Assembly: GCA_965153355.1 (NCBI GenBank)
Contig: OZ231126.1
Location: forward strand, 37,262,001-37,326,000
Reading direction: 5' to 3'
Source of the DNA: Flaccisagitta enflata
Taxonomy: Eukaryota
DNA length: 64,000 nt
The notes under the pieces were generated by a model, which was given only the letters and a program-made list of their open reading frames with translations, did not search any database and was not told the origin of the DNA. The translations under genes were made by a program, and so were the position numbers. This document shows positions 37,289 to 46,091 of the stretch, one piece after another; the first letter of the stretch is position 1, and every line of letters starts with the position of its first letter.

Positions 37289-37396
37289 GCTATGTGCAGT
37301 TAAGGGATACCTTTGAAATTGGAAGTTTGCTAAAAATCAAACTCAAATTCAAGACAAATGTCAAGGACGGAGTCATTCTTGCTATGGGATATGTTG
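37289..37396 (+). CDS. Gene B LamG2 exon a (GYVQLRDTFEIGSLLKIKLKFKTNVKDGVILAMGYV)
   Basis: Clear paralogue of 27253-27378 (shared atcaaactcaaattcaagaca); aatacag / g|gtgagt; phase 1->1. Confidence 0.88.
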
Positions 37397-37739
37397 GTGA
37401 GTAAAACTGTAACAGATCTATACAGTTTTTTGTCGGCTTTACTTGATGATATAATACGGGGTGAGGGAGCTTATAACTTGAAAACCAGTTTTAATGAATC
37501 TGACTGCCGGCCACTAATGTATCAAAAAGATTAGCTTTTGGCTATGATGCTTCCTGACTGTCTCTGCGTGTATTGACGTGTGAAATGCGCTAGATATGTG
37601 AGATATAGAGAAGGAAACATGAACTGGAGGTAGTGACAACCAGCGGCCCACCCTGGTTCCTTTTACTTCCCTTTTCTGTTTTTTCCTAACTCCCATCATC
37701 TTTTCCATCTCATTTACCTCTTCCGCCGCCACCATCTCT

Positions 37740-38720
37740 GCCCCTACCTACCCTTTGGCATCCTTTCTATCCCCTTAACCTCTACTGCCGACAACAATAC
37801 CCCCTACACTTCTTCCGCTGCTGCCGCTAGTGCCGCTACCTATCCCAAATCATGCCCCTATACCTCCTCCGCCTCCACCGCTAGTGCTGCTACCTACCCT
37901 ATACCATGCCTCCACATCTCCTCTGCCACCGCCACTGCCGCTTCTGCCTCTATCTACCCCAAATCATGCCTATATACCTCTCCCGCCGCCGCCGCTAGTG
38001 CCGCTTGTTACCCCAAATCAAGCCCCCACATCTGTGCCACCACCGCCGCTAATGCTGCTACCTACCTCTTATCATGCCCCTACACCTCTTCTGCCTCCGC
38101 CGCTAGTGCCGCTACCTACTGCATACCATGCCCCTACACCTCCCCCGCCGCCGCTGCTACTGCCGCTACCTAGCCCAAATCCTGCACCTTTACATTTTCC
38201 GCCACCGTCGCTACTGCCGCTACCTACCTTAAATTTTGCCCCTGCAACTCCGCCACCGCCGCCGCTAGTGCCACTACCTATAACATATCAGGCCCCTACA
38301 CCTCTTCCGCCGCTGCCGCTAGTGCCGCTACCCACCCCATATCAAGCCCTGACACCTCTTCCGCCGCCGCCACTAGTGCCGCTACTGGCTCTTTAAAGAT
38401 GTATTCAAGGTAGCGGCACTAGCAGCGGCGGCGGAAGAGGCTTAGGGGGTTCAGATCTCTAACTCTGCTGCCTCTACTTAAGTAGCGGCAGTAGCAGCAG
38501 CGGCAAAAGAGGTCTAGGGGCACGATATGGGGTAGGTAGCGGCAATAGCGGTGGCGGCAGGAGTGGTAGGAGGATTGAAGGAGCTAAGTAGCCGCAGTAG
38601 AGGCGACGGCGGAAGATGTGTATGAGTATGGAGGGTGAGAGGTAGCGGAACAAGAGGCTGAGGCAAAGGAGTTATAGGAGGATGGAAGAAGGAGGAAAGA
38701 AGAGGGAGGAGCGGCAATAG
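37740..38720. repeat. Foldback array of ~51-bp GC-rich units (C-rich arm then inverted G-rich arm)
   Basis: Units like cctcttccgccgccgctagtgccgctacctaccccatatcatgcccctaca run to ~38390 and are reverse-complemented from ~38408. Confidence 0.8.
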
Positions 38721-41793: not shown

Positions 41794-44700
41794 GTAAGTC
41801 TTAAAAATTTTGGGGCCCAGGTTTGGTCCATCCCAACTACAATGCATATTTACTAATTCAACCAGTGTTCAAGTTGGGAAATTCAAACTCATTTGATTTG
41901 ATTTCAAACTGAAGACTTTAGGATTGTATGAGTTTGATTTTTTTGTTTCTCACAGAACTGAAGCATAAAGGTATCAAAGCGAGAAAAACCTAACTAGACA
42001 TCCAAGGATCGCACATGGTCAGCGGTACCCGATGCCCTGCTAGGAGTGATCAAATGAAGTATTGGAGTGAGAGCAGAGCAGCGGCCCTTAAGGGCCAATG
42101 TCCTGTAGGACACAGGGGGGAATTGCGAGACATCCTGAGGTATATCAGGTCTGAGAAGACGGATAGAGGTCATTAAAGGCGGATTTGAAGTCTGGAGGGC
42201 AAAATTTAGTCCTAGAGAGCATATTTAAGGTTATGGGGGCATGCTTGAGGTTTAGAGGACAAATTTGAAGCCTGCAGGGCAGATCGAGGCCTGGAGGGCA
42301 GATTTGAGGCCTGGATGGCGGATTTGTGGTCTGGAGGGCGGATTTGAGGTCTGAAGGGCAGATAAGAGGTCTGGAGAGCTGATTTGAGGTCTCGAGGGCT
42401 AATTTGAGGGCTCAGAAGGCCAAAATCAGGCCTGAAAGTGCAGATTGAGGCCTCAATGGCCAAGGGGGGGACGGACGGAAGGACGGACGGAAGGATGGAA
42501 GGATGGAAGGACAGACATCTCAAAATTCCCCCTGTGTTCTACAGGACATCGGCCCTTTAGGGCTGCTGTCTAAACAGTTGCACTCAAGCGCAGATACACT
42601 ATTTTTTTATATGAATTGACTCTAAAAACAAGGTCATTAGACCTAAGTCGCGTGCGTCGGCACTTTCAAAAGAGTCAGGCAGACAGTCAGACAGACATTG
42701 AAAAAAAAAGACATTTGAAGTGACATTTGAAATGCCCATAACCTTGGGGGCAAAAAAAATGGCGGATTTTTAAAACAGATTCTATCTACCTCAATCAAAA
42801 AAACTATTAAAATCGGTGATGGTTACAAAGCTCTTTGAAAGATCTTTCATTTGAGTCTTGTCTGGAAATCTTAACTCAAACGGTTTAGAAGTTTTGAACA
42901 TGACTGATGCTTTTCTGACCTGCCTGTACCTCTGCAAAAGGGGAAAAAAAAAGTAAAAATTTCAAAAAAATGATAGAGGATTCAGTCCAATTTCTACAAA
43001 ATTTTAGGTGGTAATTCAAGTATCTGTCATCTGATAGCAACCCAATTTTTATGCTACTCTGATGATTTCTACTAGGGTTCTCATAGTTTTATATTCTAGA
43101 TCTCAATAAAATATACTAAAACTAAAGTGGTTTGCTGTAGTTACATTTGTTTCACCGCAGAATTGGCAAATCCTATCATGTGTTATTCCAACTGAAACAT
43201 TATTCCCAGAGCTTCAAAACCATCATGAATTTGATATGATTTTTGTCAAAACTTGATAACAAAAATCCTTGAAAAAATACCATGTTGTTATGTCAGTGAT
43301 ACTCAGATTGCTTGAAAATTTTGAGATCTTTCTAATGATGAAAATGATAGAAAAAGTTTTCCGATTTAGAGAATCTTTTAGGAGCCGTTAGAGGAAGGTA
43401 TTCACAGCTTCCAGTTCAATTTTCATTCAAATCAGAGAATTTTTACTATGGTTTTAAGATGATATTTTTTAGGCACTCATTCTTGCCATGATGTCAGAGC
43501 AGAAAAGGAGTAGTCATGTTCAAACTGCTCTAGTTTCTAAACCATTTAAGTTAAAAATTCCAGACACAGCTCAAATGAAAGATCTTTTGAAGAGCTTTCA
43601 AACCATCACTGATTTTAATTAGTTTTTAGTCGCGGACACGCAACTCTACACCTTGCCGTGTCGGTCAGTAGGTCGGTATGTCGGTCCGCCCGTTGCTCCG
43701 TCCGTCCGTCACATTTTTGAATTCTGAGCGGTTTATGCATTACTGCTCCTGCCCAACCATCCGCGACTGGATTGCCGTGTATCCGGCCTTGTTATTAAAT
43801 TAAGATAGAATCTGTTTTGAAAAGTCTGCCATTTTTTTTGCCCCCAAGGTTAATCCTTTAAAATGTCTTTAAAACATTTTCTACATGACTTTGTGACTGT
43901 CTGAAGGACATATGGACATACAGACTGACGGACAGAAAAGTGGCTTTTAGAGTCGCGTAGCACGCAACTAAAAACATATAGAATTGAATCGAAAGACATT
44001 TATTGTAAATAAGATAGCGCAAACAATGCAGTGAAACATTTACAAGTGGTCGATATGAATTTGTTGCAAAGCAACGCAAATAACGGGTGGACTTTTAAAA
44101 AATAACTTTTAATTTTTTTATATCACTTTTAAAATTTCTCCTAAGTAAAAAAAATTTTCTTAGTTATTTAGATATGATAGTGCACATTATGTTCCATTAT
44201 GGATTTTTTTATGAAGATCAATATTTTTCAAGTTATCTTAAAAAAGAAAAAATGAATTAGGGACCACTTGAAAAATTTTGCTTGAAATTGAGTATAAAAT
44301 AGTGTTCTCACCAAATTTTGCGTTTAAATCGCAATAGTTGATTAAAAGTAGGTCTTTAGAAAGTATAAGCATCAATTTTTTTTAATAAAAAAAAAATTCA
44401 TATCCAAAACACTAATGATTATCAATCATAATTTTTTGTTATAGATAGGCAATAATGCCCAGAAAATTTTTTTTGATTGACCAAGCATAATTTGAATTTG
44501 TATATTATATTCATGTACACAAATTTAAAGGCTTATTTATTTTAAATGATCACATAATAGGCAATTAAGAATCATTTTCATATTATTGAGATAAACTGAC
44601 TACTTCTTTATGTCCACCCGGTACATTCCCTCCAAAAATAGGTATCAAAGTAAATCAGGGTTGTGGATGCTAAGTGAACGAACTAGCCTAATTAGGGGTG

Positions 44701-45978
44701 AGAGAGAGAGAGAGAGAGAGAGAGAGAGAGAGAGAGAGAGAGAGAGAGAGAGAGAGAGAGAGAGAAAGAGAGAGAGAACATTTGCTCTCTTTGTCTTTTA
44801 CTTGCTACATCAAGGGAAAAAAAAGGAAAATATATGAAGGACATATGAAGGCTTCAAATTACATGAAAAAAGATAGAATTGATATCTAAAATATCTAACC
44901 TTAGGTATAACCACAACAAGGCCGGATACACGGCACCCCAGTTGCAGACAGTTAGGCAGGGGCAGTATTGCGAAAACCGCTGGAAATTCATAATTATCAT
45001 TGATGGATGGCTGGTTGGACTAACCAACACGGCAAGGTGTAGAGTCGTGTGTCCATGACTTCAATACTTACAATTTCTTCAACGAATGGCTCACGCTCAC
45101 AAGTATTTGGAATAAACATTGTAAAGTTTAGAATGGTATCAGTTGTCTGCGCAGCTGCGGTTTTCCAAGTCAGAAATGAAAATACAACTCGACTAAAAAA
45201 AACTAGCCCAAAAGGGCAACAGTCGCGTGTGTCTAGAAATGACAAACAAAAGAGTAAAAACTAAAGTACCCAAAAACTGAAGTACCCTAAAATACCCAAA
45301 AATACTTAAAGTACTTCAAAGTACCCTAAAGTACCCCAAAGTACCCTAGAGTATCTAAAGTTCAGCTAAAGTACACCCCCCACCTGGACAGTGTCACAAA
45401 CAATCAGAAACCAAATAATAATAAGCATTAAGAAAGACAAATAAACAAGAGTAAACAAGAATAAACAACAATAAACAATCATAAAAAACAACTTATTATA
45501 CCGTCAAAGACCCAAAAAAGGCCTAAATTTAAAAAAGTTTGTAACCTACCGACTTATTGACCTACTAACCTACCAACCGACAGAGCAAGGTGTAGAGTCG
45601 CGTGCACGCAACTAAAAAAGACGCACCTGCTTATCTATTCATAAAACAGATACAAAAACAATTTTACCTTTTTTCAATTGAGACATCTTGAAAGCTTTCC
45701 AAAAAATCTTTCAATCTAGACCAATCCCAGGTATGTATCTCAAACGGTTCAGAAGCTAGAGCCCTGCAAAGACAGGCACTAATTTGCAAAAATACAATTT
45801 TACATAGGGATTGTAAAACTGGAAAGGGCAATGTTCTCTAAGGACGGAAGGACCAACGGACGGACCAATGGACCGATTGACCGACAAAGCCTCTTATACA
45901 GTTGCGTGTCCGCAACTAAAAAGAATAAAAAACTTTACCTCACCATCTCTGCTGACAATATTGCCTAACTTGACTCAG

Positions 45979-46091
45979 TTCCGCATGGACGTCCATCTTT
46001 GATACTGGAATTGCATGAGGGAAATTTGTTGTTTCGTCTACAAACAAGATTGATGTATAACCAATCAATGGTCGAATTCGAGACTTCTTTC
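45979..46091 (+). CDS. Gene B LamG2 exon b (PHGRPSLILELHEGNLLFRLQTRLMYNQSMVEFETSF)
   Basis: Same length (113 nt), phase (1->0) and similar sequence to 32770-32882; gactcag / gtaagt. Confidence 0.88.

Follow-up and report, generated by a model that had tools for sequence, protein, structure and literature searches.

The DNA examined here is a window of 64,000 nucleotides from Flaccisagitta enflata (assembly GCA_965153355.1, contig OZ231126.1, positions 37,262,001 to 37,326,000 of the forward strand; positions below are counted from the first nucleotide of this window), and the element of interest is a 429-nt exon within it. The window is animal-like, being rich in long introns, microsatellites and dispersed repeats. 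On its plus strand lies the gene of a secreted mosaic protein that has an SRCR region, a first laminin-G unit (LamG1), a Kunitz domain and a second laminin-G unit (LamG2). Each LamG unit is encoded by five exons, here called a to e, and in LamG2 the extra exon lies in the intron between exons a and b. It is very probably a used coding exon, and the reading to which we incline is that it is spliced into LamG2, where it would insert a whole module of predicted discoidin/CBM32-like fold into the laminin-G unit.

Exon borders were set from open frames and splice signals, and the phases were checked by scripted splicing (Table 1). AG acceptors and GT donors are present in all twelve exons. A first-pass annotation of this DNA had claimed that the two LamG units share the phases of all five exons and the lengths of exons b to d, that LamG2 only has an additional open 429-nt phase 1-1 exon in its a/b intron, and that this exon could be skipped without a frameshift. 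All three statements hold. The phases 1-1, 1-0, 0-0, 0-1 and 1-1 are common to both units, as are the lengths of 113, 84 and 91 nt for exons b, c and d. The exon table and a tblastn search agree that the extra exon is confined to LamG2: when 61 proteins of the module's family were searched against the whole window, all 67 of 67 high-scoring segment pairs fell at the extra-exon locus, so that neither the a/b intron of LamG1 nor any other part of the window holds a further exon of this family. The extra exon is in phase 1 at both ends, matching the borders of exons a and b, and the spliced frame is therefore open with or without it. A frame-preserving exon inside a LamG unit is also one of the marks of the cassette inserts of the neurexin type. 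Spliced LamG1 (200 residues) and LamG2 without the extra exon (181 residues) share 47% identity across some 185 residues (E value 2e-58), and with the extra exon left out the a/b junction is free of gaps in this alignment.

Table 1. Exons, splice sites and related features of the mosaic gene (positions in the window)
Feature	Position	Length (nt)	Phase	Strand	Basis and remarks
SRCR-coding stretches	24801-25031, 25594-25761			+	Pfam PF00530, E 4.6e-17 and 1.7e-10; presumably same gene
LamG1 exon a	27253-27378	126	1-1	+	AG/GT, frame; aligns with LamG2 exon a
LamG1 exon b	32770-32882	113	1-0	+	Splice signals, frame, alignment
LamG1 exon c	34354-34437	84	0-0	+	DGQWHSIEA motif; Pfam Laminin_G_2, E 0.0078, below threshold
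LamG1 exon d	34974-35064	91	0-1	+	Splice signals, frame
LamG1 exon e	35422-35610	189	1-1	+	Splice signals, frame; FRGCIKD motif
Kunitz/BPTI exon between LamG units	35957-36121	165	1-1	+	Pfam PF00014, E 8e-16
LamG2 exon a	37289-37396	108	1-1	+	Ends ...GVILAMGYV + G
Intron segment absent from near-identical P0064 contig	40145-41357	about 1.2 kb		+	Holds (CT)n run 40148-40342 and 23-T tract; junction shares ATCCC
Acceptor region of extra exon	41330-41364			+	23 T then gaaaatccctcag/G, read directly
Extra exon	41365-41793	429	1-1	+	Open; encodes 143-residue discoidin/CBM32-like module
Donor of extra exon	41794-41804			+	CGAG/gtaagt, consensus; read through gives GKS then stop
LamG2 exon b	45979-46091	113	1-0	+	Splice signals, frame
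LamG2 exon c	47847-47930	84	0-0	+	Pfam Laminin_G_1, E 0.0088, below threshold
LamG2 exon d	49191-49281	91	0-1	+	Splice signals, frame
LamG2 exon e	49555-49704	150 if donor G/gtcaga used	1-1	+	Splice signals, frame; 3' border least certain of all

The translation of the extra exon matches database proteins with E values from 1e-25 to 1e-85. Three of these are plain genomic open reading frames which run over the same exon, namely P0007, P0064 and P0065 (94%, 92% and 69% identical to the window copy, respectively). All three begin ahead of the exon, crossing the acceptor as ..PSG or ..LSG, and run on past the donor as GKS or GKP, so that the frame and both borders are kept; the GKS tail read through the donor of the window copy also occurs in P0007 and P0064. 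Differences from the window copy (9 in P0007, 11 in P0064 and 41 in P0065) fall on the less conserved columns of the family (permutation p = 0.031, 0.030 and <0.0001, respectively), and none of the 54 conserved columns is changed in P0007 or P0064 relative to the window copy. Selective constraint of this kind implies that the extra exon is used in some transcript, and we hold its status as a used coding exon to be very likely. The first 11 residues of P0064 correspond to window positions 40112-40144 and the remainder matches from 41355 on. Since P0064 thus carries sequence of this same intron, it derives from this very locus, either of a close relative or of another haplotype. The 1.2-kb segment which it lacks abuts the acceptor, and the context of the acceptor accordingly differs between close relatives.

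The 142-residue translation of the window copy contains no cysteine; most relatives have three, the highest number found, and none of these is at the extreme ends. The second and third family cysteines are lost together in P0014, P0015, P0065 and the window copy, as would be expected if the two form one disulfide, and the lineage of the window copy (with P0007 and P0064) is without the first one too.

The fold of the product was modelled with AlphaFold2 from an alignment of 36 sequences, giving an all-beta structure with pLDDT 92.0 and pTM 0.87. The model is confident and of the galactose-binding-domain-like fold, which bears out the F5/8C/CBM32-like beta-sandwich proposed by the first-pass annotation, and it shows the eight-stranded distorted beta-sandwich by which F5/8 type C domains are recognised. 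Bacterial CBM32 modules are the best solved matches with both Foldseek and VIA-align, as that annotation had guessed; the muskelin discoidin domain, lactadherin C2 and factor V/VIII C2 follow. In Foldseek the first three ranks are CBM32 modules of Clostridium perfringens (E 1.1e-4 to 1.5e-4, TMq 0.62-0.66). The CBM32 matches as a whole have TMq 0.62-0.70, and APC10, muskelin discoidin, IFT25, SUN and factor VIII C2 come next. VIA-align gave Z scores of 13-15 overall, also for galactose oxidase domain 1 and muskelin discoidin. The best match was 4zxe_C (Z 15.0, root-mean-square deviation 2.4, 127 residues aligned), and entries titled CBM32 or chitosan-binding module, eg 7d2a_A and 4a44, scored 14.4-15.0; the chitosan-binding modules 4zxe and 4zz5 themselves belong to CBM32. 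Lactadherin C2 and factor V/VIII C2 gave Z 13.1-14.0 over 128-133 residues (deviation 2.6-2.8), and with factor VIII C2 (Z 13.2) model residues 2-142 aligned on 2173-2326. The nearest neighbours of the module in a protein language model are F5/8C clusters, with a score of 0.96.

The similarity is one of structure. The module shares the beta-sandwich of F5/8 type C (discoidin) and CBM32 domains over all of its 142 residues, but its identity to the structural matches is 9-18%, and Pfam assigned no family to the extra-exon product at E<=1. The discoidin model PF00754 was found at E<=1 in four of 20 family members (best 0.021). Among 46 relatives it scored below threshold in six (16.5-26.9 bits, cut-off 28.2), and only the most distant relative, P0063, passes; the window module does not reach the gathering score. 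A profile of the family found no solved chain at E<=10. In animal C1 and C2 domains the first and last cysteines are disulfide-linked, and the window module, being without cysteine, differs from these domains in lacking the end-to-end disulfide. The module is therefore of discoidin/CBM32 type in its fold, which we predict with high confidence from the model, yet stands outside PF00754 as that family is defined. The end-to-end alignment with factor VIII C2, taken together with the disulfide of C2 domains, implies that the two termini of the module are neighbours, which makes insertion into a loop geometrically easy. By analogy of fold, binding of a sugar or a lipid may be supposed.

A HMMER search of 1.84 billion representative sequences found 58 proteins at E<=0.001, 44 of them at E<=1e-10. 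Homology to the relatives coincides with the extra exon to within a few residues at either border, and several paralogous genomic open reading frames run through the donor at the same 3' border, with GK or GM tails; these kept borders and tails indicate that throughout the family a single exon of phase 1-1 encodes the module. Partner domains were sought with Pfam in 46 relatives, fourteen short fragments being left out. EGF-type domains were found in 10 of these, kringles in 5, ankyrin repeats in 5, SRCR in 2, Kazal in 2 and an ephrin-receptor-like repeat in 1; SRCR is thus a partner in two relatives and is also present in the window gene. A class 1-1 shuffled module is recognised by a single exon that holds a single domain, by phase 1 on either side and by its occurrence in unrelated architectures, and the extra exon has all three marks. 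Metagenome contigs yielded no match to an exact 29-nt pattern of the extra exon, and none of the 104 matches of a family pattern in such contigs was confirmed by tblastn.

The Pfam scan of the LamG units covered nine peptides, each from a single exon. Laminin_G (PF00054/PF02210) matched two of the nine, exon c of each unit, with E values of 0.0078-0.02 and scores below the cut-offs, and both matches cover identical profile positions, 47-77. What we take to be the LamG order of motifs (F.F.T..DG.IL / L.LEL..G / DG.WH / L.VD / GG.P / F.GC, the last two also as GGIP and FRGCIKD) is found in full, and in order, in both spliced units, which also have the 180-200 or so residues of a LamG domain. Beyond the exon c matches, the LamG label rests on this motif order, on domain size and on the identity between the units. 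The units might not be laminin-G at all, in which case the extra exon would interrupt nothing or some other fold, a possibility which overlaps with the other alternatives considered below. No single-exon peptide rises above a Pfam cut-off, the exon a and exon b peptides each found no match among solved structures, and no database protein was matched in a search with LamG1 exon e. Against this stand the coincidence of profile positions in the equivalent exon of both units, the completeness of the motif order in each, and the fact that the 185 or so residues over which they align are the size of a LamG domain. We consider it very improbable that the name is wrong.

Several features favour splicing of the extra exon to exons a and b. 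It lies on the same strand, inside the a/b intron and in matching phase, its acceptor consists of a T run and cag/G, and its donor is the consensus AG/gtaagt. No start codon is common to the versions of the exon. The selective constraint on it, the lack of another exon of the family nearby and the occurrence of the module in secreted mosaics, twice together with SRCR as in this gene, likewise speak for inclusion. That some mRNAs at least contain it between these two exons seems to us somewhat better than an even chance, and whether inclusion would then be constant or alternative is about evenly balanced.

Another possibility is that the extra exon serves a different transcript of the locus, either from a promoter inside the 8.6-kb intron or ending at ...FFVR-GKS through a donor left unused. 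Constraint on the exon shows use somewhere only, and a long, repeat-rich intron such as this one could hide small first exons. Reading through the donor reaches a stop after three codons, the GKS tail being common to P0007 and P0064, and an ATTAAA is present at 42172. Such a transcript would nevertheless have to contend with an exon that starts at a phase-1 acceptor. An in-frame ATG shortly ahead of the exon falls within the T run and is shared by neither P0064 nor P0065, there is no AATAAA within 800 nt past the donor, and tblastn found no other family-type coding piece in the window. A product consisting of exon a and the module would moreover bear a 36-residue stump of LamG. On balance we think use in another transcript unlikely.

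A number of observations weigh against inclusion in LamG2. The joints 37396 to 41365 and 41793 to 45979 occur in no transcript, read or database protein examined. Pfam found no Laminin_G match in any of the 46 relatives scanned, and in blastp of spliced LamG1 and LamG2 against the 61 family proteins the best E value was 0.78, which leaves the nested arrangement without a second example. Among database proteins of up to 2000 residues searched with the module, none joins it to LamG sequence, and a search of the open-access literature found no description of a domain nested in a LamG domain. LamG2 without the extra exon is collinear with LamG1 and has no gap at the junction, so that skipping would yield an ordinary LamG domain. 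At nine of the 54 conserved columns the window copy differs from the family consensus, and all three of the usual cysteines are among the residues it has lost. These departures could mean that constraint is relaxed, although two of the three cysteines are also missing from P0014 and P0015. To this must be added that the LamG assignment itself comes from sub-threshold matches of single exons, and that domain-exon insertion into introns accounts for <10% of domain gains according to PMC2926785. The first-pass annotation had offered the choice of a nested domain or a skippable cassette; the frame logic and the fold of that proposal stand, while nesting in LamG was seen in none of the 46 relatives.

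Some of these observations would be accounted for if the extra exon were nearly always skipped, ie if it were a recently shuffled or decaying module and LamG2 acted as a plain LamG domain. The collinearity with LamG1, the departures from consensus, the missing second example of the architecture and the 1.2-kb indel directly against the acceptor are all in keeping with this. A decaying module would not be expected to keep a 143-codon frame and both of its splice borders intact in four versions, the most distant of them 69% identical, nor to show substitutions that avoid conserved columns; the structure model is very confident and the donor is a perfect consensus. Near-complete skipping thus appears to us rather improbable. 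Inclusion, use in another transcript and near-complete skipping between them make up the whole of the confidence placed in the exon being used.

RNA data were taken from a single polyA run, of which about 6% was read, over the region 40400-49800, which does not contain LamG2 exon a. The 215 reads found there are all partial and lie on dispersed repeats, including those of the 0.6-kb type described below, and they are uninformative on inclusion or skipping. No read covered the extra exon or LamG2 exons c, d and e (depth 0), and the bin with exon b had a depth of <0.2; the gene is apparently without reads in this run.

If the extra exon is spliced into LamG2, the module would hang from the loop between the strands ...GVILAMGYV and SLILELHEG. 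With its ends adjacent it could sit in this loop without breaking the LamG sandwich. By homology the loop should lie on the rim at which LamG/LNS domains bind their ligands, and the insertion point presumably precedes the strand that bears the Ca-binding Asp of neurexin LNS domains. This Asp is found in neither LamG1 nor LamG2. The module may add a second binding surface to the rim, probably one directed at glycans or lipids.

As to origin, our verdict is exon shuffling into an intra-domain intron. A divergent sandwich of discoidin/CBM32 type, carried as a class 1-1 module, would have entered the phase-1 a/b intron of LamG2, and the tandem paralogue LamG1 seems to show the state before insertion. 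Self-comparison of the intron gave no indication of how the insertion came about. It revealed many dispersed repeats, none of them flanking the extra exon, and 40400-41990 is unique in the window.

Other repeats of the locus are as follows. A repeat of 0.6 kb is present in two copies that are 73% identical, at 41992-42577 (200 nt past the extra-exon donor) and 48556-49107 (just before LamG2 exon d). A minisatellite (37637-38690) also lies in the a/b intron of LamG2; it is open in several frames, has a P/L-rich translation and is followed by an inverted copy, and it is not coding-like. The dispersed repeat AAGGTGTTGGCCTTGTTTTT occurs at 35392-35411, 35926-35945, 18494-18513 and 8578-8597 and, on the minus strand, at 1746-1765, ie five copies at <=3 mismatches where 0.02 are expected. 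Two of these copies are followed, some 10 nt on, by the acceptors of LamG1 exon e and of the Kunitz exon, and in the P0065 contig the element seemingly lies just upstream of the lectin-like exon as well. The repeat could be a transposon end that supplies or abuts polypyrimidine tracts. Directly after LamG2 exon e there are minus-strand open frames of 831 and 278 amino acids (49835-53250), the longer of which has a weak match to Helitron_like_N (E 8.8e-4, below cut-off). These frames are probably a transposon, and their position makes the 3' continuation of the gene uncertain. Further downstream an uninterrupted frame of 941 amino acids with a P-loop (61080-63902, plus strand) matches PF09848, of Schlafen group 3 helicase type (E 4.7e-6, 26.6 bits, cut-off 24); it is a separate intronless gene or a mobile-element protein.

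The arrangement combines known kinds of event, namely exon shuffling, nested domains and splice inserts in LamG domains. Class 1-1 exons are the shuffling modules of extracellular mosaics (Patthy's rule), and the I domain of integrin alpha chains is a nested domain. Like class 1-1 modules generally, the extra exon is one domain in one exon with phase 1 at both ends, as is the Kunitz exon of the same gene; unlike the usual shuffled modules, which land between domains, it stands in an intra-domain intron. Agrin has alternatively spliced inserts in its LamG domains. The extra exon resembles the SS2 and SS4 inserts of neurexin LNS domains in being a frame-preserving exon within a LamG-type domain, and short spliced inserts of this kind change ligand affinity in the neurexins, as described in PMC6856630. 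The inserts of neurexin and agrin are 4-30 residues of loop, whereas here 143 residues would fold as a domain of their own, and the insertion loop may differ from those of neurexin.

In Caspr/CNTNAP the discoidin domain stands in series before the LamG domains, and not inside one. The discoidin-type module of the present gene differs in being encoded within the LamG unit, and no sequence relationship to Caspr/CNTNAP was found, but the likeness to the contactin-associated proteins and Neurexin IV is that they too are extracellular and combine discoidin with LamG (compare PMC3195077 and PMC5649478).

It is a tentative possibility, and one that we think doubtful, that a whole lectin-type domain acts here as an alternatively spliced cassette in LamG, which would scale the principle of SS4 from a loop to a fold of 143 residues. 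If so, the gene would toggle the rim of LamG2 between that of an ordinary LamG domain and one that bears a discoidin/CBM32-like binding head, with LamG1 as the constant partner. By analogy with the neurexin splice inserts, the extra exon might in this way switch ligand specificity.

Whatever its splicing, the extra exon defines a small family of discoidin/CBM32-like modules which is without cover in Pfam and whose partners are typical of secreted animal mosaics. If it were never included in LamG2, the arrangement would be no more than a small oddity in the structure of a gene. In the usual picture exon shuffling inserts modules between domains, and here it seems to have placed one inside a domain. 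If the exon is spliced in, LamG2 would provide a natural case of a folded domain that tolerates another domain in one of its loops, and of the re-equipping of a LamG binding rim in a single step.

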